Virus record (IMG/VR): IMGVR_UViG_2531839531_000011
DNA from: a virus
Lineage: Duplodnaviria > Heunggongvirae > Uroviricota > Caudoviricetes
Reading direction: 5' to 3' (one strand)
DNA length: 38,542 nucleotides
Shown: in pieces, positions 17,864 through 38,542 of the stretch
Layout of the letters: the number at the start of each line of letters is the position of its first letter
How positions within the stretch are numbered: position 1 is the stretch's first letter
Notes under the pieces: model-generated
What the model saw: only the letters and a program-made list of their open reading frames with translations
Database searches by the model: none
Told to the model about the DNA's origin: nothing
Made by a program: the position numbers and the translations under genes

Positions 17864-17965
17864 CGACTGACCCCGTCAGCGGGCGGCGTGCGCGGTGTTC
17901 CGGTTTGACTCCGTGACCGTTTACACCGCGCACCCACCGCCCGATTTTTTTCAGGAGTGAACCCC

Positions 17966-18660: not shown

Positions 18661-18662
18661 CA

Positions 18663-19779: not shown

Positions 19780-19930
19780 TACTCCCACATGGGGAAATCT
19801 CGGTATATGGGGCGACCGCCTTCTGGATGCACTGGAAACCTGTAACGCGGATAAACGGGCCATTGAATTACTGGAACAGCGCAGGCTGCAACGGCTGAAC
19901 AACGAGGACAACAACCATGCTGAAAACTGA
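19640..19930 (+). CDS. o-spanin (Rz1/LysC-like lipoprotein) starting inside the i-spanin gene in another frame
   Basis: Lipobox LLTGC after 12-aa hydrophobic signal; proline-rich mature region. Confidence 0.55.
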   Translation: MNAPTLCLTLVLLTGCTGTQNAPRPAPSVRLIPQTLTIPVTPPPFPDTPTWGNLGIWGDRLLDALETCNADKRAIELLEQRRLQRLNNEDNNHAEN

Positions 19931-21012: not shown

Positions 21013-21590
21013 GCGCAGAACTCATGCGACTGCTGAGCAATGTCATCCGCACCGGGATAATCTCTGAAGTTGATGAGAAGTCCTGGTGCGTGCGCGTTCG
21101 CAGCGGCGAACTGGAAACAGGCTGGTTACGCTGGAACACCACGCGCGCGGGAGCCTTCAATGTGTGGCTGCCGCCATCACCCGGCGAACAGGTGGTAATT
21201 GCCTGCATTGGCGGCAACCCGGAAACCGCCATGATAATTGGCAGCCTGTGGAGTGATACCAATCCGGCCCCCGGCAAAAGCCTGAAAGAAATCGTGGTCA
21301 GCGCGCCGGATGGCGCGGTGTTCCGCTACGACGCGGACGCTGGCGCACTGAGCGCCAGCGGCATGAAAACAGCCAGCCTGCAGGCATCCGTCAGCGTGAC
21401 ACTGGACACGCCCGTCGTGGAATGCACAAACCTTCTGAGAACGGCGACGCTTGACGTCACAAAAGGGGGAAAGATGAGCGGCAATATCACGCACAGCGGC
21501 GGCAATTTCACCTCAAACGGCATCACAGTGCATACGCATAAGCACGGTGGCGTTAAAGGTGGCAGCGATTCGACAGGAGGCCCGCAGTGA
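21009..21590 (+). CDS. V: Baseplate spike/assembly protein (P2 gpV-like)
   Basis: 193 aa; Gly-rich C-terminus (HTHKHGGVKGGSDSTGG). Confidence 0.85.
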   Translation: MSAELMRLLSNVIRTGIISEVDEKSWCVRVRSGELETGWLRWNTTRAGAFNVWLPPSPGEQVVIACIGGNPETAMIIGSLWSDTNPAPGKSLKEIVVSAPDGAVFRYDADAGALSASGMKTASLQASVSVTLDTPVVECTNLLRTATLDVTKGGKMSGNITHSGGNFTSNGITVHTHKHGGVKGGSDSTGGPQ

Positions 21591-21937
21591 CAACCCGCTA
21601 CACAGGAATGAACCCGGACGGGACGGGAAACCTGAACGATATGGAGCACCTGAAACAGTCAGTCAGGGACATCCTGACCACCCCGCTGGCAAGCCGGGTT
21701 ATGCGACGGGAATATGGCAGCCTTTTGCCTGATTTGATTGACGAACCCATGAATAACACCACGCGTCTGCAATGCATGAGTGCTGCCGTGATTGCACTGA
21801 CACGATGGGAACCCCGCATTGCCCTGGACGCCATCGACGTTGTCTGGAAGGCAGGAGGCCGCGCCGGGGTGACGCTGTCGGGCACTGTCATGCAGACCAT
21901 GCAGAATGTTGAATTAACCATCACGCTGAGGGAGTAA
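21587..21937 (+). CDS. W: Baseplate protein (P2 gpW-like)
   Basis: 116 aa; position and size. Confidence 0.8.
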   Translation: MTTRYTGMNPDGTGNLNDMEHLKQSVRDILTTPLASRVMRREYGSLLPDLIDEPMNNTTRLQCMSAAVIALTRWEPRIALDAIDVVWKAGGRAGVTLSGTVMQTMQNVELTITLRE

Positions 21938-21940
21938 ATC

Positions 21941-22837
21941 ATGCCCGCCGTTGACCTTTCCCAGTTACCGGAACCCGCCCTCATCGCGGAGCCTGACTTT
22001 GAAGCAATTCTGGCTGACACAAAAGCCATGATGATTGCGTCCTATCCCGCCGAACAGCGTGAAGCCGTTTCCGCCGCGCTGGAGCTGGAATCGGAACCCC
22101 TTAACGTTATCGCCCAGACAACAGCGTTTCGTGAAATGCTGTTACGCCAGCGGGTTAACGAGGGCGCACGCGCCTGCATGTTAAGCCACAGCGCCGGGAC
22201 AGACCTGGACAACCTCGCGGGCAATATGAACACAAAGCGCCTGGTTATCACTCCGGCAACGGATACCACCGACGCGGTGATGGAGAGCGACACCTCGCTT
22301 AGACTGCGGGCGCAGCGGGCGTACGACGGCCTGAGTGTTGCTGGCCCGTCAGGTGCATACGAGTATTTTGCCCGCAGCGCCAGCGGTCTGGTGCGTGATG
22401 CGCGGGCTATCAGTCCGTCTCCGGCCAATGTGACGGTTTCCATCCTGTCCACTGAAGGCGACGGCACAGCAACGGAGGCGTTGCTTAATACCGTTCGCGC
22501 CGTTCTGAATGCAGAGGATACCCGCCCGGTGGCCGACCGCCTGACGGTACAGAGCGCCAGAATCGTGACATGGCGGCTGAATGCAAAACTGTACTTTTAC
22601 CCCGGCCCGGAATCCGAACCTATTCTGGCCGCAGCTGAATCGTCGTTCAGGAAGTGGCTGGCTGAGCAGGGGCTTATCGGTCAGGACGTGGCGCTGTCAG
22701 CCATTGCTGCCGCACTGCATGTGCACGGTGTGCAACGCGTGGAGATAATCGAACCCACACAGAATATGGCCATCAGCGACATACAGGCGGCGCGCTGTGA
22801 GTCATTCACCATCAGCGAAGGTGGGCGCAATGAGTAA
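21941..22837 (+). CDS. J: Baseplate assembly protein (P2 gpJ-like)
   Basis: 298 aa; position and size. Confidence 0.8.
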   Translation: MPAVDLSQLPEPALIAEPDFEAILADTKAMMIASYPAEQREAVSAALELESEPLNVIAQTTAFREMLLRQRVNEGARACMLSHSAGTDLDNLAGNMNTKRLVITPATDTTDAVMESDTSLRLRAQRAYDGLSVAGPSGAYEYFARSASGLVRDARAISPSPANVTVSILSTEGDGTATEALLNTVRAVLNAEDTRPVADRLTVQSARIVTWRLNAKLYFYPGPESEPILAAAESSFRKWLAEQGLIGQDVALSAIAAALHVHGVQRVEIIEPTQNMAISDIQAARCESFTISEGGRNE

Positions 22838-23360
22838 TTCACTGTTACCGCCATCAGCCAGCAGTTTCATGCGTTGCGCCGAAGCTGTCGGAGCGCGCAT
22901 TACAGACATCCCGGTAGACCTCAACACGCTGTGGTCACCGGACACCTGCCCGGTGCATCTGCTGCCTTATCTCGCCTGGGCATTTTCCGTTGACCGCTGG
23001 GATCGCAACTGGCCGGAAGAGACAAAGCGACAGGTGATTCGTGATGCATGGCTGATACACCGACACAAAGGGACCATCAGCGCACTGCGCCGGGCCATTG
23101 AGCCGCTGGGATACCTCATTCGCGTGTCTGAGTGGTGGGAGTTCGGCGGAGAACCGGGAACATTTACCGTTGAAGTCGGCACGCTGGACAGTGGCGTGAC
23201 GGAGGAAATGTATCTGGAAATGGAGCGGTTGATTGCTGATGCCCGCCCGGCCAGCCGCCACATGACAGGGCTGAATATCATTCAGGAGATCCCGGGGGAT
23301 ATTTTCGCGGCGGCAGCAACTTACGACGGTGAAGTCATTACCATTTATCCGGACGATTAA
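22830..23360 (+). CDS. I: Baseplate/tail protein (P2 gpI-like)
   Basis: 176 aa from ATG at 22830 overlapping J stop. Confidence 0.75.
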   Translation: MSNSLLPPSASSFMRCAEAVGARITDIPVDLNTLWSPDTCPVHLLPYLAWAFSVDRWDRNWPEETKRQVIRDAWLIHRHKGTISALRRAIEPLGYLIRVSEWWEFGGEPGTFTVEVGTLDSGVTEEMYLEMERLIADARPASRHMTGLNIIQEIPGDIFAAAATYDGEVITIYPDD

Positions 23361-23362
23361 GC

Positions 23363-25729
23363 ATGAGTACCACAACACGAAAATTTAAAACCGTTATCAC
23401 CGATACGGGTGCAAAAAAATTAGCTCAGGCAGCCGCGCCAGATGGTAAGCCTGTCCGCCTGACTCATATGGCCGTGGGCGACGGTGGCGGCACGTTGCCC
23501 ACACCAGACAGTAAGCAGACCCGTCTGGTGCATGAGGTGTGGCGACACACTGTTAATCGCGTCATCCTGGACGCAACACATCAGAACCGCATTATTGCGG
23601 AGCTGGTTATTCCTCCTGAAACGGGCGGATTCTGGATCCGGGAAATTGGTGTATTTGATGAGCACGGCGATTTAATCGCGGTGGGCAATACTGCCGAAAG
23701 TTACAAGCCAGCCGTTGCCGAAGGGTCCGGTCGTGCACAAACGTTTCGCACCATTCTGACCGTATCCAGCACTGCCACCGTGGCGCTTACCGTGGATAAC
23801 ACCATGGTGATGGCCACAGTGGATTACGTGGATGACAAACTGAAAGAGCATGAACGGTCACGACATCACCCGGACGCCTCGCTGACCGCAAAAGGCTTTG
23901 TTCAACTCAGTAGCGCCACTAACAGCGTGTCTGAAACGCAGGCTGCAACGCCGAAAGCAGTAAAGGCAGCATATGACCTGGCTAATGGCAAATACACCGC
24001 ACAGGACGCTACCACTGCGCGGAAAGGGATAGTTCAGCTCAGTAGCGCCACCAACAGCACGTCTGAAACGCAGGCTGCAACGCCGAAAGCAGTAAAGACC
24101 GCGTATGATCTTGCTAACGGTAAATATACTGCGCAGGATGCCAGCACGACGCGAAAAGGCCTTGTCCAGCTCAGTAGCGCCACCAACAGCACGTCTGAAG
24201 CGCAGGCTGCAACGCCGAAAGCAGTAAAGGCCGCGTATGACCTTGCTAGCGCAAAATATACCGCTCAGGACGCCACGACGACACAAAAAGGGATAGTCCA
24301 GCTTAGTAGTGCCACCAACAGCACGTCTGAAACACTGGCCGCGACACCGAAAGCGGTTAAGGCGGTAATGGATGAAACGAACAAGAAAGCGCCTTTAAAC
24401 AGTCCTGCGCTGACCGGAACGCCAACAACGCCAACTGCGCCAAAAGGGACTAATAATACTCAGATCGCAAGCACGGCTTATGTGATGGCCGCGATTGCCG
24501 CACTTGTAGACTCGTCGCCTGACGCACTGAATACGCTGAACGAGCTGGCGGCGGCGCTGGGCAACGACCCGAATTTTGCGACCACCATGACTAACGCGCT
24601 TGCGGGTAAGCAACCGAAGGATACCACCCTGACGGCGCTGGCCGGGCTTGCTACTGCGGCAGACAGGTTTCCGTATTTTACGGGGAATGATGTCGCCAGC
24701 CTGGCAACTCTGACAAAAGTCGGGCGGGATATTCTTGCGAAATCGACCGTTGCCGCCGTTATCGAATACCTCGGTTTACAGGAAACGGTAAATCAGGCTT
24801 CTGGCGCATTACAGAAAAACCAGAACGGCGCAGATATTCCGGGAAAAGATACCTTCACCAAAAATATTGGGGCCTGCCGCGCATATAGCGCATGGCTGAA
24901 TATTGGTGGCGATAGTCAGACCTGGACAACTGCGCAATTTATTTCGTGGCTGGAGAGTCAGGGGGCATTTAACCATCCTTACTGGATGTGCAAAGGCTCA
25001 TGGGCTTATGCAAATAATAAGGTCATTACAGATACAGGTTGCGGAAATATTTGTCTTGCAGGTGCTGTGGTGGAAGTTATTGGCACTCGCGGCGCAATGA
25101 CCATACGCGTTACTACGCCGAGCACGTCCAGCGGCGGCGGAATTACTAACGCTCAATTCACCTATATTAATCATGGTGATGCTTATGCTCCTGGCTGGCG
25201 ACGAGACTACAACACGAAAAACCAGCAGCCTGCATTTGCTTTAGGGCAGACAGGAAGCAGGGTTGCAAATGATAAAGCTGTTGGCTGGAACTGGAATAGC
25301 GGTGTTTATGATGCAGATATCAAAGGCGCAACAGCATTAATACTCCACTTCAATATGAATACGGGGAGTTGCCCTGCTGTACAGTTCCGCGTGAATTACA
25401 GGAACGGCGGTATCCTTTATCGTTCAGCGCGTGATGGTTATGGCTTTGAAGATAACTGGTCAGCGTTTTACACCACAACCTACAAACCCTCTGCGGGGGA
25501 TGTTGGTGCATATACCAAAGCGGAATGTAACTCAAAGTTTATTACAGGTATTCGTCTGGGCGGTCTGTCATCTGTTCAGACATGGAATGGTCCCGGCTGG
25601 TCTGACAGGTCAGGTTATGTCGTTACGGGTTCAGTTAACGGAAACCGTGATGAATTAATTGATACAACTCAGGCAAGGCCAGTTCAGTATTGCATTAATG
25701 GAACGTGGTATAACGCAGGGAGTATTTAA
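23363..25729 (+). CDS. H: Tail fibre protein (P2 gpH-like) in the expressed orientation, with internal tandem repeats
   Basis: 788 aa; conserved N-terminus; ends ...INGTWYNAGSI before the chaperone gene. Confidence 0.9.
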   Translation: MSTTTRKFKTVITDTGAKKLAQAAAPDGKPVRLTHMAVGDGGGTLPTPDSKQTRLVHEVWRHTVNRVILDATHQNRIIAELVIPPETGGFWIREIGVFDEHGDLIAVGNTAESYKPAVAEGSGRAQTFRTILTVSSTATVALTVDNTMVMATVDYVDDKLKEHERSRHHPDASLTAKGFVQLSSATNSVSETQAATPKAVKAAYDLANGKYTAQDATTARKGIVQLSSATNSTSETQAATPKAVKTAYDLANGKYTAQDASTTRKGLVQLSSATNSTSEAQAATPKAVKAAYDLASAKYTAQDATTTQKGIVQLSSATNSTSETLAATPKAVKAVMDETNKKAPLNSPALTGTPTTPTAPKGTNNTQIASTAYVMAAIAALVDSSPDALNTLNELAAALGNDPNFATTMTNALAGKQPKDTTLTALAGLATAADRFPYFTGNDVASLATLTKVGRDILAKSTVAAVIEYLGLQETVNQASGALQKNQNGADIPGKDTFTKNIGACRAYSAWLNIGGDSQTWTTAQFISWLESQGAFNHPYWMCKGSWAYANNKVITDTGCGNICLAGAVVEVIGTRGAMTIRVTTPSTSSGGGITNAQFTYINHGDAYAPGWRRDYNTKNQQPAFALGQTGSRVANDKAVGWNWNSGVYDADIKGATALILHFNMNTGSCPAVQFRVNYRNGGILYRSARDGYGFEDNWSAFYTTTYKPSAGDVGAYTKAECNSKFITGIRLGGLSSVQTWNGPGWSDRSGYVVTGSVNGNRDELIDTTQARPVQYCINGTWYNAGSI
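23894..24375 (+). repeat. Tandem 132-bp (44-aa) tail-fibre repeats, about 3.6 copies (KG-VQLSSATNS-SETQAATPKAVKAAYDLANGKYTAQDATT)
   Basis: Repeats visible in both the H translation and the DNA. Confidence 0.75.
24759..24784. other. gix/hix-like inversion crossover site (TTATCGAATACCTCGGTTTACAGGAA) inside H
   Basis: 26 bp; inverted copy at 27686..27711 differs at two positions; resembles the Gin gix consensus. Confidence 0.7.
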
Positions 25730-25731
25730 TT

Positions 25732-26265
25732 ATGATGCACTTAAAAAACATTACTGCTGGCAATCCTAAAACAAAAGAGCAATACCAGCTAACAAAGCAA
25801 TTTAACATCAAATGGCTTTATTCAGATGATGGAAAAAACTGGTATGAGGAACAAAAGAATTTCCGGCCAGACACATTGAAAATGGCCTATGACCATAACG
25901 GCGTTATTATTTGTATTGAAAAGGATGTTTCAGCAATTAATCCGGAAGGCGCAAGCGTCGTTGAATTACCTGATATTACAGCAAATCGCCGTGCTGATAT
26001 TTCGGGTAAATGGATGTTCAAAGATGGCGCAGTGATAAAGCGAACTTATACCGGGGAGGAACAGAGGCAGCAGGCAGAGAATGAAAAGCAAAGCCTGTTG
26101 CAACTTGTCAGGGATAAAACCCAGCTATGGGACTCACAGCTACGGCTGGGCATCATTTCCGACGAGAATAAACAAAAATTAACCGAGTGGATGCTCTATG
26201 CGCAGAAAGTCGAATCCACAGACCCCTCCAGCCTGCCAGTAACATTTCCCGAACAACCTGAATGA
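25732..26265 (+). CDS. G: Tail fibre assembly chaperone (P2 gpG-like), expressed orientation
   Basis: 177 aa; N-terminus [22 protein letters not shown] shared with the inverted copy. Confidence 0.85.
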   Translation: MMHLKNITAGNPKTKEQYQLTKQFNIKWLYSDDGKNWYEEQKNFRPDTLKMAYDHNGVIICIEKDVSAINPEGASVVELPDITANRRADISGKWMFKDGAVIKRTYTGEEQRQQAENEKQSLLQLVRDKTQLWDSQLRLGIISDENKQKLTEWMLYAQKVESTDPSSLPVTFPEQPE

Positions 26266-26824: not shown

Positions 26825-27685
26825 TTACACCTGTGCGACGTTATACCATGTGCCATTGATGTATTTTTGTATTGGTCTGAAGATGGCTTCATCATCGCCA
26901 TCTACTTCACCAATGATTCTTAATCCGGTAATTGCGTGTCCGGCTTTTTCATAACGACCACCACGCGCCATCAATTGAACAACACGCGTACCCAGGCGAA
27001 CATCTTTTACATAGCGTGAATCAAAATTCCCCCAGTTGCTGGGCTGTATCTGACCGTTAACAGAAAATATTACCGAGTTATCTGTATTTCGCTGGCTATA
27101 GAAATGCCAGCCTGAATCATCACCAAGCTCTGCAACAGTTGGTCTTGATGAAGTGCCCCATAAATTAAACCCTACGTTCTTCGTGGAGTTGTTGGAGCTG
27201 GATAGCGAGAACTTTTTACTATCACCTGCCTGAATGTTTTTAAAAGCAATAGCCACTCCATTCTGAAAGCGGAATACTCGCTGACTATTAGCGTAAACAT
27301 CCAGAATACCATCACCATTCTGTTTAAATCCGGTATCATTATCACCAAGAACAATTGAGCTACCACCTAACGCATTCGTTGTACCAACTCCAAGACTGCC
27401 ATTAATGACGGCATTAACCAGAATATTCAGTGCATTCAATTTCAGCGTCATCAGGTCTTTTGTTGTGGTGCCCTAGCGGCTTCTCCATTTGAAATATTCA
27501 TTGCCGTTGTCGCCTGTTTCAAACCACATGAATGAATCAGTATCGCTGTCAGCATCATTTTTAAACCCAATCTTTGCCCAGTCAGTATTTCGAATCCAGG
27601 CAAGGATTGAGTCGTTTGCAAAAGTAAGCCCACCGGACAAGGTATCGCCATTCTTTTGCACCGCGTTCCTGGCCCTGTTTACCAT
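26825..27685 (-). pseudogene. Alternative tail-fibre variable domain interrupted by an in-frame TAG
   Basis: Two ORF pieces (27473..27685 and 26825..27451) in the same frame separated by an amber stop near 27473; ends ...INGTWYNVAQV like H. Confidence 0.6.
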
Positions 27686-27711
27686 TTCCTGTAAACCGAG
27701 GTTTTAGATAA
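27686..27711. other. gix/hix-like inversion crossover site, inverted copy (reverse complement TTATCTAAAACCTCGGTTTACAGGAA)
   Basis: Read directly. Confidence 0.7.
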
Positions 27712-27741
27712 TGGCGGTTTCTGGCCTGCATGGCATGATTT

Positions 27742-28356
27742 GTGCTTTTGGACGGGAGATTCAGCGTGCTGATTGGCTATGTAAGGGTATCAACAAATGA
27801 CCAGAATACAGACCTGCAACGAAACGCTCTTGTTTGTGCAGGATGTGAACAAATATTTGAAGATAAATTAAGCGGGACAAAGACAGACCGACCGGGATTA
27901 AAACGCGCTTTAAAGCGCCTTCAAAAAGGTGACACGCTGGTTGTCTGGAAACTGGATCGCCTCGGGCGAAGCATGAAACATCTGATTTCTCTCGTCGGGG
28001 AACTACGGGAGCGAGGGATTAATTTTCGCAGTCTGACCGACAGCATAGATACATCTTCTCCAATGGGGCGTTTTTTCTTCCACGTGATGGGTGCCCTGGC
28101 TGAAATGGAACGTGAATTAATTGTAGAGCGTACACTGGCCGGTCTGGCAGCAGCACGCGCACAAGGGCGCACAGGCGGACGTCGCCCGAAGCTGACAAAA
28201 GAACAGAATGAGCAAATAGCAAGGCTGATTAAAAACGGGCACGACAGAAAACAACTGGCAATAATTTACGGCATTGGTACATCGACGATTTATCGTTACC
28301 ACCCCGCAGGAGAATCAAGCGGAACAATTGAGAAGAGCAAACAAAATAACCGCTAA
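27742..28356 (+). CDS. Serine DNA invertase of the Gin/Cin/Pin/Hin family (probable GTG start at 27769, MLIGYVRVSTNDQ)
   Basis: Near-identical to recalled Gin over most of its length; catalytic-serine motif YVRVSTNDQ; C-terminal HTH. Confidence 0.9.
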   Translation: MLLDGRFSVLIGYVRVSTNDQNTDLQRNALVCAGCEQIFEDKLSGTKTDRPGLKRALKRLQKGDTLVVWKLDRLGRSMKHLISLVGELRERGINFRSLTDSIDTSSPMGRFFFHVMGALAEMERELIVERTLAGLAAARAQGRTGGRRPKLTKEQNEQIARLIKNGHDRKQLAIIYGIGTSTIYRYHPAGESSGTIEKSKQNNR

Positions 28357-28376
28357 TCTGGCCATTAGCGGTTTTT
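28350..28376. terminator. Bidirectional intrinsic terminator (CCGCTAAT-ctggcc-ATTAGCGG then TTTTT) between convergent invertase and U genes
   Basis: 8-bp perfect stem and T-run read directly. Confidence 0.55.
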
Positions 28377-28384
28377 GTGTTAAA

Positions 28385-28879
28385 TCAGAACAGCCCTTTA
28401 ACTGAACTGGCCGCGCTGTTAAGAGATGATGTCACTTTATCTTTGAAGCCGGACAGCATATCGCTGAACGATGAGGATTGCAGGCGCTCCCGCAAATCCT
28501 CATCACAGCGTTCAAGGGTCAGTGAAAATTCTATTTTTTTCGCCTTACCGTAGCGATCAAATTCAGAGCGGGTCGTACTCGTTTCGGTCAGGACATACAT
28601 GCCGTAAATCTGCCCGACGCCATCAATCAGAGGCCAGGGGCGTCCTGTATATGCCTGCGTGGTCAGCAGCGACAGCGACACTTCGCCACCTGTAATTTCA
28701 GGATAAAGCACGCCTGAAAGCACGATGCGATCATCACCTGCACCGATATACTGCCAGCTTGCTGAACGGTTAACGCGTTCATTTTTCACATGCCGCCAGC
28801 TTTTGTTTTGCTGTAACTGCTGATGCGGCAATGTGCGCAGCTCAAAAACAAACATGCCGTAGATCATCATCATGGCCAT
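28385..28879 (-). CDS. U: Tail protein (P2 gpU-like)
   Basis: 164 aa; follows tape-measure gene on the same strand. Confidence 0.7.
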   Translation of the reverse strand: MAMMMIYGMFVFELRTLPHQQLQQNKSWRHVKNERVNRSASWQYIGAGDDRIVLSGVLYPEITGGEVSLSLLTTQAYTGRPWPLIDGVGQIYGMYVLTETSTTRSEFDRYGKAKKIEFSLTLERCDEDLRERLQSSSFSDMLSGFKDKVTSSLNSAASSVKGLF

Positions 28880-28885
28880 GACTCC

Positions 28886-31702
28886 TCAGTCTTTATCGTA
28901 AAAACTGCCACGCCCGGCACGGGCGCGCCGTTCCATTTCTGCCCTGACCATTTCGCCAACCAGTTTCGCCAGTTCGCGGGGATTCTGCGTAACAACGTTA
29001 TGCAGATGAACATGAATTTCACCGCCAAATCCGGAGGCAACAGGCTCCCGGTTACGGGAAGTTGCAGGAACTGATGCCACTGGCGATCGTATAGCCTCCG
29101 CCACCGGGCGGGAGCTGGCCGCAACAACAGGGACCAGCGCCGGAGGCAGCGGAGCCGGAACCACGGGGGTGATATTAATTGCGGGGGCAGGCTTACTGAC
29201 CTGCGGAATCTTCCGCTCCTGCCACTCCCCACGAACGGCAAGTGCGCGGGGCAGGTTCTTAAAGACAATATCGCCGGGGCCAATACGTTTTTTCGTCTCA
29301 TCAACCAGCTTACCTGTGTTATCAGCAATTTTGCTGAGCCTGCGTAGCGTACCGGTATTGTTGTCTGTGAGCGGTTTGTTGTCTTTGGGTTTATCACCTC
29401 CGGAGCCATTTCCATTTTCCACAGGCTTCGGCGGATTGATTTTCGCCAGGTCCCCCTGAAGCAAGGCAACCTTGTCCTGAAGAATGGCCGCACGCTGTGC
29501 GTCTTCGATTTTCTTTCTCGCCCGTTCCGCTTCATCCGGAAGCACTCCGAGCTTTTCAAGTATCCACGCCAGTGAATCCATCAATGCTTTTGTTGGTGTC
29601 AGGACAAGCTCTATCGCTCCACCGAGTACCCTGCCAAATACCTCGCCAGCACTGGTACATTTATCCAGCGTTTCCTTGCTGGACTCCATCGGTGACAGCA
29701 GCGATTTAAACCAGTTAAACACCTGGCTGATCCCGCTTCCGATTGCGTCAAAAACAGGACCGAACCGTTCAAAGGTTTCGCGCAACGGAGCCAGCCGTTC
29801 CATAATCCCACTGAACACCCCTGCATAAAACGCCTTGATGGGTTCCCAGTATTTCCAGATGAGAACCGCCGCAGCCACAAACGCAGCAGCAATCAATCCG
29901 ACCGGGCTGAACAGCGCCCCGATAGCGCCCCCCAGTAACGAAACGGAACCCGTCACCATTCCCCATAGTGCTGGCAGGAGCCTGACAGCATTCATTGATC
30001 CGGTCAGGAGGGAAAAGCCAAGACGCAGTTTTGCCAGCGGGCCAGCAAGCACACCAATAGCCAGCGACAACGAGCCGACCGTTGCAGTCATCGCCAGCAA
30101 CGCCCCACCTGCAATCAGTAGCTGGCGCGTCAGTGCCGGATGGGCCTGCGCCAGCGCCGTCACCTTTGATACCACCCGCGTGAGCCACTGCGTGACAGAA
30201 CGCAGCGGACCGTCAATCAGATCTGCAATGCGGATGCGCAACCCTTCCCATGCACTGCCGAGTGATTTCAGATCGCCGTCAAGGTTGTTGGCCATAACCT
30301 TTGCCGTGCGTTCAGCCTCACCGCGTGCGCCTTCAAGTTCTTTTCTCAGTTTAGGTAAGGATCCGTCACCTGCCGCATCAACGAGGGCCATAAATGATGT
30401 GAAAGCCTCTTCTCCGGCAATGTCCTTAAAGAACGATACCCGATCAACTTCTCCGTATTTGCGGGTGGCTTTATAAAGGTCAGTCAGCAGATCTTCCATC
30501 GGGCGCATTTTGCCCCCGGCATCCGAGACAGACACGCCCAGCTCTTTCAGCGCCTCTGCTGCCGCCTTTGGCGGTGATGCCAGACGAGCCAGGCTGGCAC
30601 GCATTGCCGTCCCGGCATCACTTCCCCTGATACCCATATTCGCCAGCACGCCCGCCATCGCTGCGGCCTGCTCCAGCGATATTCCCAGCTTACCCGCCAC
30701 CGGACCTGCATATTTCATGGTTTCGCCCAGTGCGCGAAGGTCAGTGTTGGTACGGGTAAACGCTGCAGTGAGTGTGTCACCGACCCGGTCCATCTGGTCA
30801 GCAGAAAGGCCGAACTGCGTCAGGATATTTGAGCCAATATCCGCCGTCTCGCCGAGATCCATACCGCCAGCCGTTGCCATGCTCAGCACGCCGGGAAGCG
30901 CAGCCTGAATGGCCTGCGGAGTGAAGCCAGCCATTGCAAGAAATGCCTGTCCACTGGCGGCATCGCCTGCGGTGAACTGCGTTTCAGAGCCAAGTTTTAA
31001 CGCCTGCTCACGCAGCGCCTTAAACTGCGGGCTGTTCTGGTCGATTCGCGTCAGTGCCTGAACGCGGGACATCTCTTTGCCGAACCCGATCGCAGGCTGC
31101 AAAAAACGCCCGGCAGCATAGCCGCCCGCCGCTGCCGCACCAATTGCCAGCGCACCACCTGTTTTCAGTTTTCCCGCTGTTTCCTGCGCGCGCGAATACC
31201 GCTCACGCGCCCGCGTTACACGCGCAAGCGCCTGCCGTTCGCGTTCAAGCTGGTTGTTATACTGTTCGGTGCGTCTGATGGCCTGCTGGATGGTGTTATC
31301 GCTGCCTGTCAGGGAAATGCCGTGGCGTTTCAGCTCTCCGCCAAGTTCCCGCATTTTCTGAATTTCCCGTGTGCGCGATTCATTCAGGCGTTCAAGCCGG
31401 GTGCTTAACTGCTGCATCAGCTTTTGTTGTTTTTCGCTGAGCACTGTACCCGTGCGTTGTAACTGATTAAGAGCGTTAAGCTGGCGTCGTGCTTTCAATA
31501 TGCCAGCATCCGCTTTACTGACAGCGTCACGGGCGCGCTCAAATGAACGCGCCTGACGCTCGAGATTTTTGATCGCCCCCTGCGTTCGCTGGATGGAGTC
31601 ACCAAACTGCCCCATCAGGCGGCGGGCGTTTTCGGCAGGCCGGGTCAGCCTGTCAACGGCGCTGAAAGCGACCCGGATATCAAGAGTCTTCATTATCTGC
31701 AT
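28886..31702 (-). CDS. T: Tail tape-measure protein (P2 gpT-like)
   Basis: 938 aa; Ala/Gly-rich, coiled-coil N-terminus, hydrophobic central segments. Confidence 0.85.
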   Translation of the reverse strand: MQIMKTLDIRVAFSAVDRLTRPAENARRLMGQFGDSIQRTQGAIKNLERQARSFERARDAVSKADAGILKARRQLNALNQLQRTGTVLSEKQQKLMQQLSTRLERLNESRTREIQKMRELGGELKRHGISLTGSDNTIQQAIRRTEQYNNQLERERQALARVTRARERYSRAQETAGKLKTGGALAIGAAAAGGYAAGRFLQPAIGFGKEMSRVQALTRIDQNSPQFKALREQALKLGSETQFTAGDAASGQAFLAMAGFTPQAIQAALPGVLSMATAGGMDLGETADIGSNILTQFGLSADQMDRVGDTLTAAFTRTNTDLRALGETMKYAGPVAGKLGISLEQAAAMAGVLANMGIRGSDAGTAMRASLARLASPPKAAAEALKELGVSVSDAGGKMRPMEDLLTDLYKATRKYGEVDRVSFFKDIAGEEAFTSFMALVDAAGDGSLPKLRKELEGARGEAERTAKVMANNLDGDLKSLGSAWEGLRIRIADLIDGPLRSVTQWLTRVVSKVTALAQAHPALTRQLLIAGGALLAMTATVGSLSLAIGVLAGPLAKLRLGFSLLTGSMNAVRLLPALWGMVTGSVSLLGGAIGALFSPVGLIAAAFVAAAVLIWKYWEPIKAFYAGVFSGIMERLAPLRETFERFGPVFDAIGSGISQVFNWFKSLLSPMESSKETLDKCTSAGEVFGRVLGGAIELVLTPTKALMDSLAWILEKLGVLPDEAERARKKIEDAQRAAILQDKVALLQGDLAKINPPKPVENGNGSGGDKPKDNKPLTDNNTGTLRRLSKIADNTGKLVDETKKRIGPGDIVFKNLPRALAVRGEWQERKIPQVSKPAPAINITPVVPAPLPPALVPVVAASSRPVAEAIRSPVASVPATSRNREPVASGFGGEIHVHLHNVVTQNPRELAKLVGEMVRAEMERRARAGRGSFYDKD

Positions 31703-31900
31703 TCCCGCTGCGAAGTGCCGCCCGCTCGCGCCAGCTAACCACTTCGCCGGGCGTCATCATGAAGATTTCGGCGGGCGACCAGTTAAAAATGGCGGCAATA
31801 TCCGCCACCAGATCTTCGATGTGCTCAAAGCACACCAGGGTGATTACGCTGCCGTCTCCTGCACGCTCTTCGCGCCAGAGTCTGGCTCGCTCATAAAATT
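31680..31900 (-). CDS. E' frameshift extension of the tail assembly chaperone (E+E' made by -1 frameshifting)
   Basis: Overlapping -1 frame ORF; AAATTTT heptamer (plus-strand complement at ~31894..31900) at the frame junction. Confidence 0.55.
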
Positions 31901-32218
31901 TACAGCCACAGCGCACAACTGAATAAAATCGCGTGACGACATTTTTTTAATCATCACTTCATCCAGTCGTGGCGAGGTCACGCGAGGCAACAGCGTAAAC
32001 ATGGTATCCGCTTTCAGATTCAGCACATCAGACAGCGACAGACCACGCAGGGATCCAGCCTGCTCAATAGCCCCGGTGATCTCCACATACGTGATTTTTT
32101 CGCCACCACGCTCAATTGGTCGGGTCAGTTTTACGCCACGTTCGACAGCCATATCCTCACCTGCCGTCACATCATCCGCCACGGTGTTATTCCGGGTTTC
32201 AGTATCGATGTCTTTCAT
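31844..32218 (-). CDS. E: Tail assembly chaperone (P2 gpE-like)
   Basis: 124 aa; position between tube and tape-measure genes. Confidence 0.75.
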   Translation of the reverse strand: MKDIDTETRNNTVADDVTAGEDMAVERGVKLTRPIERGGEKITYVEITGAIEQAGSLRGLSLSDVLNLKADTMFTLLPRVTSPRLDEVMIKKMSSRDFIQLCAVAVNFMSEPDSGAKSVQETAA

Positions 32219-32273
32219 CAGTTGTCTCCTTTTCAGTCAGAGGCGACGCACTGCGCCGCCTGCATATTACTTA

Positions 32274-32789
32274 TCAGCCAAGCCCAAGCGCGGAACGGAT
32301 GCGATCTGGCACAATGTCCTTGCCGTCCTTCCGGTAGATGTGGTTCAGCAGGTCGATTTCCCACAGCGGGCGATCGTTAACGCTCAGCTTGTAGTAGGTG
32401 TTTTTGACAGCGTAAGTGTGTGATGTGGCTTCGCCCTGTTTGGCTTCCCCCATATCAATTTCCGTCACACGCCCGCGCATCTCGATTTCATACAGATCGC
32501 TTTCTGCATCGGTGTAGTATTCACCCGCAAAACGCAGCAGCGTGCCGTCAATCGTGCCGCCATATTTAAGGAACAGCGCACGAACAGCTCCACCCATGAC
32601 AAAACTCGCATCAAGCGCGGAGTCATCCAGACCGAGATCAATACTTACCGCCCCCATCATGCCTCCACCACGATAGCTGTCGGTTTTGCGCGTCAGTTTG
32701 GGCGGCGTGACGGATGTCACCTTACCCACTTCGTTTTCACCATCCACAAACAACGTAAAAAAGCGAAGATGTTTTGGTACAGCCATCAT
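32274..32789 (-). CDS. FII: Tail tube protein (P2 gpFII-like)
   Basis: 171 aa; position after sheath gene. Confidence 0.85.
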   Translation of the reverse strand: MMAVPKHLRFFTLFVDGENEVGKVTSVTPPKLTRKTDSYRGGGMMGAVSIDLGLDDSALDASFVMGGAVRALFLKYGGTIDGTLLRFAGEYYTDAESDLYEIEMRGRVTEIDMGEAKQGEATSHTYAVKNTYYKLSVNDRPLWEIDLLNHIYRKDGKDIVPDRIRSALGLG

Positions 32790-33970
32790 GCACCTCCCAG
32801 CACCGCAAATGCGGGACCAAAGAATTCATCAGTAAACGTCTGGTAAAGCTCCATGTCTTCCAGTGGCGGAACGGGCGTATATTTGTAGCGAATACGCACA
32901 CGTCCCTGACGTAAATCCGTTGTGCTGTTATCCACCACGTCATACCAGCACTCCGCACCAATCAGTTTCCCGGCAGTAACCAGCGAATCCAGTTTTGCCC
33001 TGATGGCGCTGATAACGTCCTTCACGTTCGCAGGCGTCAGTGGACTGTCGATGGTTTCAAACTGCGCTTCCGCAATTGAATCAGCCAGCACCTGTGCGGT
33101 TCGGGTATACACCTCAAAGATGTAGGCGTTCGTTTCCGGTGTGCGGTTGCCCCAGAAGCGGAACCCGTTGCGACGAATAATGGTCGTGATTTCTTTGTTA
33201 TTGAGACTGTTGGCATCACTGTCTTCGGCCTGCAACGACCAGAACACATGCCTCGACATCCCCAGCACATTTTTGACCGGAACGTTGGACAGCGATTTGT
33301 GCCAGCCCTGCTCATGGTCAATGTACGCACGAAGGCCGCACGCATAGGCAGGCGCGGGGAACGTTTCGTTTTTGCCACTTTTCGGGTTGTAGGCGATGAA
33401 GTCCGGCCATAAGAGCATCACCTCACGTTCGTTGAATTTCTGGCGGTAGGTAATTGCCTCAGCCATCGTGTTACAGTCATGACATGAGGCATACACAAAC
33501 GCGCGCAGTTTACCCGCAATCACGCACAGGGATTTTGTTACCGCTTCCGTGTCCAGCTCCGGCGCGGCCAGAATACGCGGACGGTATCCGATGCTTTCAT
33601 CCTGCTCTGCAACAAGCAGCGCATACATCCCCGTATAGCTGCCGTCATCCTCAGAACCACCGATAACCAGTTGATCCTGCGTCTTTCCGTCTTCTTCTTT
33701 GTGTTCAGCCACGCGAACGACGATCACCTTTGTGCTCACCTGGTCTGCGATGGCCTTAAGCGCACGATAAAGCGTCCCCGTTGTCCCGCATTTTCCCAGC
33801 ACGTCATTGACGCGGGTCAGCAGTGTGGGCTTGTTCAGCGGGAACAGCTTCGCGTCCGCATCATCCGCCGTTGCCACGATACCGATAACGCTGGAATCAA
33901 CATCGTTAATCGCTGTTACCAGGTCGGTATTTTCCGTAACACGGGCACCATGAAAACGAGTTTCACTCAT
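32786..33970 (-). CDS. FI: Contractile tail sheath protein (P2 gpFI-like)
   Basis: 394 aa; size and position as for P2 FI. Confidence 0.9.
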   Translation of the reverse strand: MSETRFHGARVTENTDLVTAINDVDSSVIGIVATADDADAKLFPLNKPTLLTRVNDVLGKCGTTGTLYRALKAIADQVSTKVIVVRVAEHKEEDGKTQDQLVIGGSEDDGSYTGMYALLVAEQDESIGYRPRILAAPELDTEAVTKSLCVIAGKLRAFVYASCHDCNTMAEAITYRQKFNEREVMLLWPDFIAYNPKSGKNETFPAPAYACGLRAYIDHEQGWHKSLSNVPVKNVLGMSRHVFWSLQAEDSDANSLNNKEITTIIRRNGFRFWGNRTPETNAYIFEVYTRTAQVLADSIAEAQFETIDSPLTPANVKDVISAIRAKLDSLVTAGKLIGAECWYDVVDNSTTDLRQGRVRIRYKYTPVPPLEDMELYQTFTDEFFGPAFAVLGGA

Positions 33971-34126
33971 AGCTTCAGCCCCTTGTATCCGTTAAATGAT
34001 TCGGCAACAATCATCACCCACCACGCGCGTAATCTCACCCCTGCGCCGTTCTCCCGCCACGGCGACAACAAAAAGCAGTAACCCACTCCGCACGCACATG
34101 CGACCATGCCGCACAGGGAGGGAAAG

Positions 34127-35236
34127 ATGACCGACACCACCATGCAATTGCTCAGTCAGAGCACAGACCCCGTGAAAATGCCGGATTTTGATATTCTCGC
34201 GGAGGGGGAAACGCTGTCCGGCGTGGCAGAGCGCCTGATGAGTCTGTCACTGACTGACAACCGGGGATTTGAAGCGGACCAGCTCACCATCACGCTGGAT
34301 GATGCGGATGGTCAGTTGCAGCTACCGCCACGGGGCGCGCGCCTGACGGTTCTCATTGGCTGGAAAGGAGAACCGCTGACAGAAAAAGGCACTTACATTG
34401 TTGATGAAATCGCTCACGAAGGACCGCCGAACAGGCTGACGGTTTCAGCCAGAAGCGCAGATTTTCGGGATGAATTTAACGTTAAACGTGAGGTGTCCTG
34501 GCATGATGTGACCGTTGAGCGAGTGGTATCCGCCATCGCTCATCGGTATGGTCTGAAACCGCAAATCAGCGAAATGCTGATGGATATCGAAATCGACCAC
34601 GCCGACCAGACCGAAGAAAGTGACATGTCCTTCCTTACGCGCATGGCGGAAATGCTGGGCGCAATCACCACGGTAAAAAGCGGTAATCTGTTATTCATCA
34701 TGCCCGGCGGTGGCGTGAACGCACAGGGCCAGCCGTTGCCATCGTTCGCCATCACACGCAGCAGCGGCGATCGCCATCAGTTCCGCATTGCTGACCGCGA
34801 GGCGTATACGGGGGTACGCGCTTACTGGCTTGATCTTAATTACGGGAAAAAGAAAAAAGTCAGCGTGAAACGCCGCAAACCGCCAAAACCCAAAAAGGAG
34901 AAAAGCAGCAGCCGTGAAGGTGATTATATGGAAGGCGCAGAAGGCAATGTGTTTGTGTTACGCAAGACTTATCAGAACGAGCAGGCAGCAAGACGCGCAG
35001 CAGCGGCAAAATGGCAGCAGCTACAACGCGGAGCCGCATCATTCTCCATCACGCTGGCGCGTGGACGCGCAGAACTCTATCCCGAAATGCATGGCACGGT
35101 GAAAGGCTTCAAAAGTGACATCGACAATCAGGACTGGATTATTGCAAAAGCTGAGCACACCATTGATAACAGCGGCTTTACCACACAGCTTGAGCTTGAG
35201 GCAAAAATCCCGGAATGGATAGCGGAAACAGAGTGA
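34127..35236 (+). CDS. D: Late control/tail protein D (P2 gpD-like); ORF extends to 34106, AGGGAGG RBS favours 34127
   Basis: Size and position immediately before ogr. Confidence 0.75.
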   Translation: MTDTTMQLLSQSTDPVKMPDFDILAEGETLSGVAERLMSLSLTDNRGFEADQLTITLDDADGQLQLPPRGARLTVLIGWKGEPLTEKGTYIVDEIAHEGPPNRLTVSARSADFRDEFNVKREVSWHDVTVERVVSAIAHRYGLKPQISEMLMDIEIDHADQTEESDMSFLTRMAEMLGAITTVKSGNLLFIMPGGGVNAQGQPLPSFAITRSSGDRHQFRIADREAYTGVRAYWLDLNYGKKKKVSVKRRKPPKPKKEKSSSREGDYMEGAEGNVFVLRKTYQNEQAARRAAAAKWQQLQRGAASFSITLARGRAELYPEMHGTVKGFKSDIDNQDWIIAKAEHTIDNSGFTTQLELEAKIPEWIAETE

Positions 35237-35278
35237 AGAACTTAGAATAGCGGCAGCACCACGTTAAGGGAGGTCGCT

Positions 35279-35539
35279 ATGTTCCGTTGTCCGCTTTGTG
35301 GCGCATCTGCCCGTATCCGCACCAGTCGTCCGGAAAATGATTCAAACACCGTGCGGCAAAAGTATTACCAGTGTAACAACCTGGAATGCGGCGTATGCTT
35401 CTCAACACTGGAAGCCTTCCATAAATTCACATCGAAACACGCCTCCGGCGTTCACTCATCAGAAGGTATTCCGTGGCATGAGCTGCCAGCTTCACACAGG
35501 GGAAACAATCAGATGAGTTTGCCTTTACCTCAGAATTAA
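35279..35539 (+). CDS. ogr: Ogr/Delta-family zinc-finger late transcription activator
   Basis: MFRCPLCGASARIRTSR...YYQCNNLECGVCF matches the recalled Ogr Cys4 pattern. Confidence 0.85.
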   Translation: MFRCPLCGASARIRTSRPENDSNTVRQKYYQCNNLECGVCFSTLEAFHKFTSKHASGVHSSEGIPWHELPASHRGNNQMSLPLPQN

Positions 35540-35627
35540 CAGGCAGAATTGCCGGAGTAACAAAAAAGCGATAGATTACGTGCGGGTGCCTTTCGGCTGA
35601 TGGTCGGAGGGAATACCCGAAGGCCAG

Positions 35628-35813
35628 ATGTGGAAAGGCCCCGAGTCAACTTTAACGTTAACCCGAGGCCCTAACCATCTACCCTTAGCAAGTGATAGGT
35701 TAGCGCCTCCCCGAAAAAGGAGCAAGCGCTATGTCGCAAAAATCGCTTACGGCCATCACGTTCTGCGTGACGGCAATCCTCATCATCTGGATGCTGCACG
35801 GTTCGCTGTGTGA
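35628..35813 (+). CDS. Mok-like overlapping reading frame (modulator of hok translation)
   Basis: 61-aa ORF overlapping the hok-like start in another frame, as in hok/mok/sok loci. Confidence 0.4.
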   Translation: MWKGPESTLTLTRGPNHLPLASDRLAPPRKRSKRYVAKIAYGHHVLRDGNPHHLDAARFAV

Positions 35814-35902: not shown

Positions 35903-36048
35903 AATCAGTTGCCAGGATAAGGTCGATAAGGCATCCTGTCTCACTCTATACCAGCTAATCAATTGACACATATCAATAAAAAGCCTGATAAAATCAAAAT
36001 GTTTTGTTACAAATGTCAGCTAGTAGAGGGCCAAAGGAGGCAGATTAT

Positions 36049-36381
36049 ATGGCATTAATCAAATGTCCTGAATGCCAGAAAGAGGTGATCGATTCAGTAT
36101 TGTCTTGCCCTGCTTGTGGCAAACAACTGAAAAATCTTAAACGCTCATTTTTTGGAGAACTCATTAAGTGTTTTTTTATATTATTTAATGTTTTTATAAT
36201 CTACACGATTTGTATTGGGCTAAGAGAGGTGGGTGAAATAATAAACAACGCCACATCCGATGCCGAAAAAGCCGGTACAGTTATTGGTACGGGCTTAGGT
36301 TTAATTGCTATTGGAGGCTTATGGGTTATTGGCAATATCATTATCGGAAATTTAGTATTTCTTACTAAACCAAAGGGATAA
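36049..36381 (+). CDS. Zinc-ribbon (CPEC...CPAC) membrane protein, AT-rich cargo gene
   Basis: AGGAGG RBS before MALIKCPECQ; N-terminal Cys4 ribbon followed by two or three hydrophobic helices. Confidence 0.55.
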   Translation: MALIKCPECQKEVIDSVLSCPACGKQLKNLKRSFFGELIKCFFILFNVFIIYTICIGLREVGEIINNATSDAEKAGTVIGTGLGLIAIGGLWVIGNIIIGNLVFLTKPKG

Positions 36382-36385
36382 CAAA

Positions 36386-37279
36386 ATGAAAAATGTGATT
36401 ATTTCTATAGGCGCATCATTTATATCAATTAGTGTGCTACCTGCTCACGCAGCAACTGAGCATAATAACTTTAAGTCATCACTCCAGTGCCGAGCAATAG
36501 AAAATAATAAAGAAAGACTTTCTTGTTATGATAAGTCAATACAACCGACTCGAACGACAGTTGCTGAAAAATTCGAAAGCAGAGATCAATGCCCTGATGA
36601 GAAAGATGATGACAGACGTTTATCTTGTTATGACCGTTTTTTTTCTCCAACATTTACTCCGCCTGTAAGCTCAAAATCTAAAGTGAAACAGCTAGTAACA
36701 ACAGAGACTCAGCAACCAAATCTTTCTGAGATATCTAAATGTCGAGCAGAAAACGATAAAGAAACTAGAGTAAACTGCTACGATAAACTATTTCCACAGG
36801 AAAAAGCTACGCAATCTAAATCAAAATTAGAGAAAGCCACAGACTCAGGAAAATGGCACACATCCATTACTACATCGCCAATTGATGATTCGAAAAATGT
36901 AATTTTATCGTTAGAAAGTGATGATTATATAAGAACTCCATTTGGAGAAGCGGTTACCCCTACTCTGTTTATAGCTTGCCGAGAAAAGAAAACCGAAGTA
37001 TTTCTTAATTGGGATGTATATTTAGGCCTTGAACAAACCAGCATGCTGTATCGCCTTGATAAACAGAAAGCAGTTGAGCGAAACTGGCTAGTATCTACAG
37101 ATACAAAGGCTGTTTTTTATAAAGGCAATGACATTAACTTCATCAGAAAACTAGCCAACTCAAACAAAATGTATGCAAGAATAACCCCTTATAATGAAAG
37201 CCCTGTAAGTGCAACTTTCAATTTAAACGGCCTGTCAACCACGCTAAAACCGCTTCAAGAAGCCTGTAACTGGAAATAG
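36386..37279 (+). CDS. Secreted protein with three Cys-containing repeats (C-x10-R-L/V-S/N-CYDK/R) and a C-terminal domain, AT-rich cargo gene
   Basis: 297 aa; signal peptide ...VLPAHAAT; repeats at RLSCYDK, RLSCYDR, RVNCYDK. Confidence 0.6.
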   Translation: MKNVIISIGASFISISVLPAHAATEHNNFKSSLQCRAIENNKERLSCYDKSIQPTRTTVAEKFESRDQCPDEKDDDRRLSCYDRFFSPTFTPPVSSKSKVKQLVTTETQQPNLSEISKCRAENDKETRVNCYDKLFPQEKATQSKSKLEKATDSGKWHTSITTSPIDDSKNVILSLESDDYIRTPFGEAVTPTLFIACREKKTEVFLNWDVYLGLEQTSMLYRLDKQKAVERNWLVSTDTKAVFYKGNDINFIRKLANSNKMYARITPYNESPVSATFNLNGLSTTLKPLQEACNWK

Positions 37280-37309
37280 TATAAATCATGCGGCTAAGCC
37301 ACAATCACA

Positions 37310-37347
37310 GATAACACAAAGCCCGTGAAAACGGGCTTTGTGTTATC
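37310..37347. terminator. Strong bidirectional terminator: 16-bp perfect inverted repeat GATAACACAAAGCCCG-tgaaaa-CGGGCTTTGTGTTATC
   Basis: Read directly, just after the cargo genes. Confidence 0.6.
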
Positions 37348-37362
37348 TATAACTCGAAAATG

Positions 37363-37380
37363 TGGTCACTGCGTGGACAT
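37363..37380. other. Candidate attR core (gtggtcactgcgtggaca), direct repeat of 11..28
   Basis: 17/18 match to the sequence at the int 3' end; lies between cargo genes and host flk. Confidence 0.35.
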
Positions 37381-37546
37381 GCGCCGATACAAATCCTTTT
37401 ATATCAAAAAGTTAAATCAACATCTTTTTCATCAACAAGGATTTTCACGTTTGTGTTACCTGTATGAGACGAGAGTTAACCGGACAAGTGTGCCATAATC
37501 TCGCGGCCAGGCATACTTGCGAAGATTTCAGGTATAAGGATACGTA

Positions 37547-38542
37547 ATGATACAACCTATTTCCGGCCCTCCTCCTGGGCAACCACCAGGTCAGGGAGAT
37601 AACCTGCCGTCTGGCGCGGGCAATCAGCCTTTATCCAGTCAGCAACGTACTTCGCTGGAAAGCTTAATGACGAAAGTGACCTCACTGACGCAACAGCAAA
37701 GAGCAGAACTGTGGGCGGGTATCAGGCACGATATTGGTCTGTCGGGAGATTCACCGCTGCTTTCGCGTCACTTCCCTGCCGCTGAGCATAATCTGGCGCA
37801 ACGTCTGCTGGCCGCGCAAAAAAGCCATTCTGCCCGCCAGCTTTTAGCGCAATTAGGGGAGTATTTACGTCTGGGGAATAATCGTCAGGCGGTCACGGAT
37901 TATATCCGTCATAACTTTGGTCAGACGCCGCTGAATCAGCTCTCACCGGAGCAATTAAAAACCATTCTCACCCTGTTGCAGGAAGGGAAGATGGTTATTC
38001 CGCAACCACAGCAGCGCGAGGCGACCGACCGTCCTTTATTACCGGCGGAGCACAATGCGCTAAAACAGCTGGTGACCAAACTTGCGGCGGCAACGGGGGA
38101 ACCCAGCAAACAGATCTGGCAATCGATGCTGGAACTTTCCGGGGTGAAAGATGGCGAGTTAATTCCAGCGAAACTGTTTAACCATCTGGTGACCTGGCTA
38201 CAGGCGCGTCAGACGCTAAGCCAGCAAAATACGCCGACGCTGGAATCACTACAGATGACGCTAAAACAACCTTTAGATGCCAGTGAACTGGCGGCGTTAT
38301 CGGCATATATCCAGCAAAAATATGATCTTTCTGCGCAATCATCGCTTTCTTCTGCCCAGGCCGAGGATATTCTTAATCAGCTTTATCAACGGCGGGTTAA
38401 AGGGATTGATCCGCGTGTTATGCAACCGCTGCTTAATCCTTTTCCACCGATGATGGACACGTTGCAAAATATGGCAACGCGTCCCGCGCTGTGGATACTG
38501 TTAGTCGCGATTATCCTGATGCTGGTCTGGCTGGTTCGTTAA
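37547..38542 (+). CDS. flk: Host flagellar regulator Flk (C-terminally membrane-anchored)
   Basis: 331 aa; N-terminus MIQPISGPPPGQPPGQGDNLPSG and C-terminal hydrophobic anchor match my recollection of E. coli Flk. Confidence 0.75.
   Translation: MIQPISGPPPGQPPGQGDNLPSGAGNQPLSSQQRTSLESLMTKVTSLTQQQRAELWAGIRHDIGLSGDSPLLSRHFPAAEHNLAQRLLAAQKSHSARQLLAQLGEYLRLGNNRQAVTDYIRHNFGQTPLNQLSPEQLKTILTLLQEGKMVIPQPQQREATDRPLLPAEHNALKQLVTKLAAATGEPSKQIWQSMLELSGVKDGELIPAKLFNHLVTWLQARQTLSQQNTPTLESLQMTLKQPLDASELAALSAYIQQKYDLSAQSSLSSAQAEDILNQLYQRRVKGIDPRVMQPLLNPFPPMMDTLQNMATRPALWILLVAIILMLVWLVR

Follow-up and report, generated by a model that had tools for sequence, protein, structure and literature searches.

The tail genes FI, FII, E, T and U of the prophage analysed here stand in reverse orientation relative to phage P2, and across a large enterobacterial clade of P2-like phages this orientation is fixed and normal. 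The window (the whole stretch of 38,542 nucleotides under analysis) is a P88-like prophage of P2 type (Xuanwuvirus, Peduoviridae). As a whole, its arrangement is very probably explained by an ancient inversion of the FI..U block that became fixed in the clade, together with an FI-D spacer that would act as a bidirectional late promoter built on an Ogr box. The layout matters little as an anomaly, given that it is the layout of a prophage family carried by roughly one in four complete E. coli genomes. Its interest is that of a structural marker: divergent FI and D genes characterise Xuanwuvirus, Reipivirus, Reginaelenavirus, Senquatrovirus and their relatives, and set this clade apart from Peduovirus, Felsduovirus, Wadgaonvirus and the non-enteric genera. 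For annotation purposes, a divergent FI/D pair should not be flagged as a rearrangement or a misassembly.

At the level of gene content, homologues of every P2 tail-module protein (FI, FII, E/E', T, U and D) are present in the window (Table 1), and in BLASTP comparisons with P2 the FI, FII, T, U and D proteins show 33-49% identity with E values from 1e-41 to 1e-120. Read along the minus strand from 33970 to 28385, the block runs FI, FII, E, T, U, which is the internal order of P2. Within E, the -1 frame stays open after a slippery A AAT TTT heptamer (about 31901-31895) as far as about 31690, and the annotation of P88 holds two CDSs matching E and E'; E' is probably the product of a -1 frameshift that would extend E from the heptamer to that point. 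Open reading frames and Pfam domains agree in placing all of FI..U on the minus strand and H/G, the invertase, D and ogr on the plus strand, as the earlier note had read them. The block accordingly converges with the invertase over a two-way terminator and diverges from D across 33971-34126 (156 bp), also as described before. The longest ORF of D begins at 34106, yet the ATG preceded by a ribosome-binding site (GGGAGGG) lies at 34127; the D start at 34127 and the spacer limits 33971-34126 were adopted because this site and the P88 annotation agree.

The departure from P2 is clear-cut. The P2 RefSeq record places FI, FII, E, E', T, U, D and ogr on the strand of the V to G genes and treats them as one F operon, matching the prior description of FI-FII-E-T-U-D as an operon co-oriented with H-G and ogr. 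U (22312-22791) and D (22791-23954) lie there on the same strand, co-transcribed and overlapping by one base. The window shares with this pF-driven operon the homology of all seven genes (33-49% identity), the order from FI to U, an Ogr-family activator and a TGT-N12-A(C/G)A box upstream of FI. It differs in the trait that defines the canonical operon, namely a D gene co-oriented with FI..U, directly 3' of U and in one transcription unit with them: here the block is inverted in place, and D is cut off from it and faces FI across the 156-bp spacer. FI..U is, in short, a clean in-place inversion relative to P2.

Table 1. Features of the window; coordinates count from its first nucleotide, and boxes, -10 elements and starts are predictions
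Feature	Position	Strand	Supporting detail
Integrase	1-1020	minus	
Repressor	1102-1737	minus	
Early and replication genes, including A	A at 6125-8947	plus	
Q and P	12153-14950	minus	
Comparator Ogr-type box, P/O divergent spacer	15013-15036	minus	core 15015-15032, centre 15023.5
O through G	about 15105-26265	plus	
H	23363-25729	plus	
G	25732-26265	plus	
Gin/Hin-type serine invertase, convergent with gpU	27742-28356	plus	Pfam Resolvase and HTH_7
Bidirectional intrinsic terminator between convergent invertase and gpU	28348-28373		10-bp stem, T-runs on both strands
gpU homologue (tail protein), last block gene	28385-28879	minus	Pfam Phage_P2_GpU E=2.7e-39; 47% identity to P2 U
Tape measure (gpT homologue)	28886-31702	minus	Pfam PhageMin_Tail E=4.5e-58; 33% identity to P2 T over 732 aa
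Tail assembly chaperone E	31844-32218	minus	weak Pfam Phage_TAC_7 match; 35% identity to P2 E (tblastn)
Tail tube FII	32274-32789	minus	Pfam Phage_tube E=2.2e-45; 42% identity to P2 FII
Tail sheath FI, first gene of leftward operon	32786-33970	minus	three Pfam sheath domains; 45% identity to P2 FI
Predicted -10 of leftward FI promoter, GATGAT	34015-34010	minus	predicted start about 34003
Predicted Ogr box TTGTTGT-N12-AGAAC	34048-34071	minus	core TGT-N12-AGA 34050-34067, centre 34058.5; binding inferred
Predicted extended -10 of rightward D promoter, TGcGACCAT	34099-34107	plus	predicted start about 34114
gpD homologue (baseplate hub, VgrG/Pvc8 family)	34127-35236	plus	Pfam Phage_GPD; 49% identity to P2 D
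ogr (Ogr/Delta-family zinc-finger late activator)	35279-35539	plus	Pfam Ogr_Delta E=5e-14; 42% identity to P2 Ogr

The spread of this layout was followed with an 8.3-kb query that spans both junctions of the block. Its alignments to P88 and further Xuanwuvirus records (P884B11, Citrobacter PhiSM, 520873, 500465-2, PhiR44_2 and Chuche) are collinear and unbroken, with 93-97% identity; in P88, 97% of the query is covered in one piece at 95% identity, and the annotated strands are those of the window, with the invertase on the plus strand, gp44-gp49 on the minus strand and D on the plus strand. P88 and PhiSM are the closest named relatives, with 95-97% nucleotide identity to the window over the 8.3 kb; from the invertase through U, T, E, FII and FI to D and ogr, their genes follow the same order on the same strands. 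Their differences from it are only allelic and lie mostly in cargo genes and in the fibre/invertase module left of gpU, apart from the lack of an ogr annotation in the P88 RefSeq record. Both are functional, plaque-forming temperate phages (PMC5285337, PMC6456863). Among 5426 complete E. coli genomes, the query is found in one piece in 1103, and an 801-bp probe for the FI-D junction (coverage of at least 80%) is found in 1358, nearly always at 95-99% identity. The probe for the invertase-gpU junction is intact in 621 genomes; elsewhere, owing to the variability of the fibre/invertase module left of gpU, it breaks at the 3' end of this gene.

Such recurrence of both junctions excludes an assembly error and a strain-specific rearrangement. 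The earlier note had left room for the junctions being artefacts of assembly, a suspicion with nothing behind it beyond the odd appearance of the block when set against P2. Independent complete assemblies that repeat the two junctions number from hundreds to thousands, and sequenced phage isolates have them as well; an artefact at one or both of them is scarcely credible.

Beyond Xuanwuvirus, the same configuration is found in phages of three further genera. Searches of a phage collection by tblastn found FI and D adjacent and divergent in Klebsiella phages Kp4848-1 (Reipivirus) and Kp4871-3/Kp4878-3 (Reginaelenavirus), and tblastn of D and FI gave the same result for Salmonella SEN4/SEN5 (Senquatrovirus); FI and D of these three genera are 55-73% identical to those of the window. 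A scan with the D protein over one genome per species yielded 46 loci from about 20 Enterobacterales genera, including Salmonella, Edwardsiella, Symbiopectobacterium, Serratia, Erwinia, Pantoea, Enterobacter, Kosakonia, Brenneria, Klebsiella and Rouxiella. All 43 of the loci that have both FI and D show the order J+ I+ H+ ... U- T- E- FII- FI- D+ ogr+. Thus every examined relative with a D protein at least 63% identical to that of the window (four ICTV genera and 43 genome loci) has the divergent layout. The nearest relatives outside the clade, Felsduovirus RE2010 and Wadgaonvirus 500465-1, with D about 52-53% identical, are co-oriented like P2, as are phages of Pseudomonas, Ralstonia, Acidovorax and Yersinia and those of the Klebsiella Kp4867-2 type. 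The layout had been presented as unusual, a view that does not survive the synteny comparison: relatives share this orientation as their common arrangement. Of the two descriptions offered for it, inversion with respect to P2 and arrangement specific to the lineage, both hold, the second being the more informative in view of the clade-wide sharing.

The position of a serine invertase gene directly beside the block raises the question of whether FI-U could be a large programmed segment, flipped by this Gin-like enzyme and occurring in both orientations. Apart from this adjacency, the evidence goes against such an arrangement, which is highly improbable. The sole gix-like inverted repeat of the window (24753-24792 and 27678-27717, 40 nt, 90% complementary) brackets the H/G segment. 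No inverted repeats pair 28357-28385 with 33971-34126, which leaves the FI-U block unbracketed, in agreement with the earlier note, where no gix-like repeats had been found at the block ends. Only one orientation is seen in the 1358 E. coli genomes positive for the FI-D junction and in 47 of 47 related loci and phage records. Besides, the invertase is absent from most of the 43 clade loci and from SEN4, and in Wadgaonvirus 500465-1 it lies directly upstream of a co-oriented FI. The invertase serves the H/G tail-fibre switch and not the FI-U block. That neighbouring switch resembles the Mu G segment with Gin, as well as P1 Cin and Salmonella Hin, in its alternative H C-termini and G genes and in the 40-nt repeats that bound it; in DNA, the invertase region 27674-28121 shares 93-96% identity with Mu/D108 gin, a likeness that extends over the 5' two-thirds of the gene. 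The FI-U block differs from the G segment in lying outside the switch, free of flanking repeats, in having one orientation, and in being found in relatives devoid of an invertase.

At the boundary with the invertase, the terminator hairpin 28348-28373 folds with -16.9 and -16.1 kcal/mol (z about -3.9). In the relatives, a crude scan for a hairpin plus T-run detected a terminator downstream of gpU in 23 of 42 distinct sequences only, and for this reason the element is not claimed to be clade-wide.

With regard to the origin of the arrangement, the simplest reading is that one ancient inversion would have occurred in the ancestor of the clade and is now fixed. The inverted state is taken as the derived one by parsimony over the sampled genera rather than from a rooted phylogeny. 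The block could also be thought of as a foreign contractile-tail module that recombined into the genome in the opposite orientation, instead of inverted resident genes. P2-like phages are mosaic, and the adjoining invertase region has its 93-96% identity to Mu gin. However, no discontinuity marks the block: its proteins are 33-47% identical to those of P2 (Table 1), as against 41-55% for the flanking structural proteins D, J (55%), N (41%) and P (44%). This similar divergence of block and flanks argues for one old, fixed inversion over a foreign module. In addition, the block keeps exactly the P2 gene order, and the identities of FI and D to the window rise and fall together across the clade (for instance 70/72, 68/73 and 55/63). 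The import of a foreign module is accordingly very unlikely, and the inversion of resident genes is retained in what follows.

This inversion has a consequence for gene expression: with no co-oriented gene left upstream of it, D must have its promoter within the 156 bp that separate it from FI. The need for a promoter of its own, already foreseen in the earlier note, is supported by a conserved Ogr-type box in the spacer, accompanied by -10 elements that face both ways. The late consensus of P2 is TGT-N12-ACA, and the content of its late operons has been described (PMC3931495). A scan of the window for this exact consensus gave six matches, none in late intergenic regions and not above chance; the FI-D box was missed because its right half-site reads AGA and not ACA. 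It was found by aligning the FI-D spacers of four genera and then allowing A(C/G)A at the right half-site. In the window, the 12 specified bases of TTGTTGT-N12-AGAAC occur exactly twice, in the P/O and in the FI/D spacers. Among 48 related spacers, all have the TTGTTGT half-site at the same position and 44 contain a single TGT-N12-A(C/G)A box; in the remaining four the weaker half-site reads AGG, a difference of one base. In the 44 box-bearing loci the distance from the box centre to the FI ATG is 78-88 bp, and that to the RBS-preceded D ATG is 64-76 bp in nearly all of them.

Conservation outside the box was measured column by column in 43 distinct spacers anchored on the box centre. It is highest 41-49 bp from the centre towards D, in the columns TG, A2 and T6 of an extended -10, and 44-49 bp from the centre towards FI, in the columns A2, A5 and T6 of a -10. 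From this -10 geometry, starts are predicted about 55-56 bp from the box centre on both sides, which would give D a leader of only about 13 nt. A generic sigma-70 scan of the FI-D spacer found no promoter; such a result is expected for activator-dependent promoters and lends no positive support.

These observations suggest that the FI-D spacer is probably a second bidirectional Ogr-dependent late promoter. The evidence leans towards a single dyad Ogr box that would drive both late promoters, the inversion having been tolerated thanks to the symmetry of this site. According to this model, the inversion would have brought the F promoter, together with its dyad-symmetric Ogr box, up against the start of D, and the symmetric site, at once or after the gain of only a -10, would have driven the orphaned gene. 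Two starts would each lie about 55 bp downstream of the box: a leftward one for FI..U, whose transcript would end at the terminator next to the invertase gene, and a rightward one for D, from which transcription would probably read through into ogr.

The precedent for such a design is the divergent pP/pO pair of P2. In the P2 record the two promoters, with starts at 3016 (pP) and 3127 (pO), are served by one annotated activator site at 3057-3087. The core of that box, TGT-N12-CCA, is centred at 3071.5, 55.5 bp from each start, and the -10 of pO, GAAACT, lies 44-49 bp from the box centre. The FI-D box of the window is likewise midway between divergent late units, with predicted -10 elements 44-49 bp to each side, and the P/O and FI/D boxes of the window share the same 12 specified bases. 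The two systems differ in that the FI-D box separates a sheath gene and D instead of terminase and scaffold genes, and in that starts and Ogr dependence are mapped in P2 and predicted in the window.

A different possibility is that D is transcribed from an independent promoter in the spacer, either a constitutive sigma-70 promoter or one with a separate regulator site, and that the box belongs to the FI operon only. In line with this idea, the box sits a few bases tighter to FI in some sub-lineages, and the right half-site of the window is degenerate (AGA). Nevertheless, there is only one box-like element per spacer, and the narrow range of distances between its centre and the D ATG is kept in nearly every box-bearing locus over about 20 genera. 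Moreover, the extended -10 on the D side is conserved with no conserved -35, a pattern characteristic of promoters that depend on an activator and parallel to that of P2 pP/pO. An independent D promoter is therefore unlikely, and the shared Ogr box is preferred as a simple, testable account of D expression after its separation from the F operon. If this account is true, the clade would provide a natural case of promoter capture via operon inversion, and the FI-D spacer would be a second pP/pO-like bidirectional late promoter that defines a clade of several Peduoviridae genera.

The divergent FI/D layout is itself already known, in that it has been present for years in public annotated phage records (P88, PhiSM, SEN4). 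In the literature on Xuanwuvirus, P88 and SEN4, no discussion of the orientation of the tail operon was found, nor any comment on the FI/D layout as a clade marker or on a shared Ogr box. The promoter model proposed here, which draws on spacer alignments and on the analogy with P2, would be a small new inference of a familiar kind.

Two further resemblances were considered and set aside. A mirror duplication of the spacer halves was rejected, as these are 36% identical with only the box and the -10 positions in common. The short similarity 'CCCTTGTATC' between the FI/D and P/O spacers was dismissed because it overlaps the FI ribosome-binding site in the FI/D spacer and is not conserved in relatives. 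The P/O spacer of the window is organised like its FI/D spacer, with the -10-like elements TAATCT (14980-14975, minus strand) and TGcCATCAT (15065-15073, plus strand). A box of the TTGTTGT type is also located between P and O in SEN4.

In the scaffold gene O, the longest reading frame begins at 15072, while the ATG at 15105 is preceded by a ribosome-binding site (GAGGGG) and agrees with the annotation of phage P88. As the predicted -10 element of pO (15068-15073) overlaps the upstream ATG, translation likely starts at 15105 rather than at 15072. Both predicted bidirectional promoters, in the FI-D spacer and in the divergent P-O spacer, also carry on each side a conserved alternating CGCGCG(CG) run, located between the predicted late-activator site (Ogr box) and the -10 and about 19-40 bp from the centre of the box. 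The run occupies the same columns in the related genome loci L004-L048, and the pP promoter of P2 has a similar GC-rich stretch.

Within the tail genes, the heptamer A AAT TTT (31895-31901, minus strand), near the end of the chaperone gene E, is a candidate for -1 frameshifting, with the -1 frame open as far as the start of the tape-measure gene T; the site in P2 is instead TTTTTTG. At 27674-28121, which covers the right gix-like site together with two-thirds of the invertase gene from its 5' end, DNA identity to gin of Mu, D108 and SfMu is 93-96%, in contrast to the P2-like remainder of the prophage; a Mu-type tail-fibre switch is joined on here in a sharp mosaic junction. In the constant part of the tail-fibre gene H (23890-24361), a 132-bp unit, equivalent to 44 amino acids, is present in three to four tandem copies with 84-86% identity.

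Coordinates of features matched in the accessory and regulatory regions
Feature	Position	Strand	Remark
SPFH/Band 7 protein	4249-5079	+	
Ash-like ORF	5133-5756		adjoins isrK and C4 matches
isrK	5193-5267	+	Rfam, 62 bits, above gathering score
C4 antisense RNA	5303-5390	+	Rfam, 79 bits, above gathering score
ParM actin-like segregation protein	9024-9983	+	full-length, E=3e-82
Fic/Doc toxin	10865-11272	-	
Phd/YefM-like antitoxin	11272-11628	-	slightly below Pfam cut-off
CGCGCG(CG) run, P-O	14982-14990		
CGCGCG(CG) runs, FI-D	34030-34040, 34090-34098		
Zinc-ribbon protein	within 36004-38542		
VasI-like type VI secretion protein	36386-37279		matched at E=1e-24

In the early region, the segment at 5193-5390 (plus strand) is an antisense immunity element of the P1/P7 type. 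The ParM gene and the SPFH/Band 7 gene both lie in this region too, in what is an integrating P2-like prophage. Between the replication genes and Q, a low-GC cargo slot is occupied by the toxin/antitoxin pair (10865-11628, minus strand), and the small ORFs found at this position in P88 differ from those of the window. At the other end, the sequence 3' of ogr (36004-38542) is low in GC (36%) and is probably not phage DNA but host chromosome or an island that flanks the right attachment site.

Two contigs attributed to Firmicutes, one from Vagococcus sp. WN89Y (L008) and one from the Planococcaceae MAG UBA3378 (L049), bear the same enterobacterial prophage region with 97-98% protein identity, which most likely reflects contamination or mis-binning of their assemblies. 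The deposited 'phage' records 520873 (NC_049344.1) and 503458 (NC_049341.1) are probably defective prophages, because insertions of IS100 (IS21 family) break their tail sheath/tape-measure region, within the counterpart of window positions 27400-35700.
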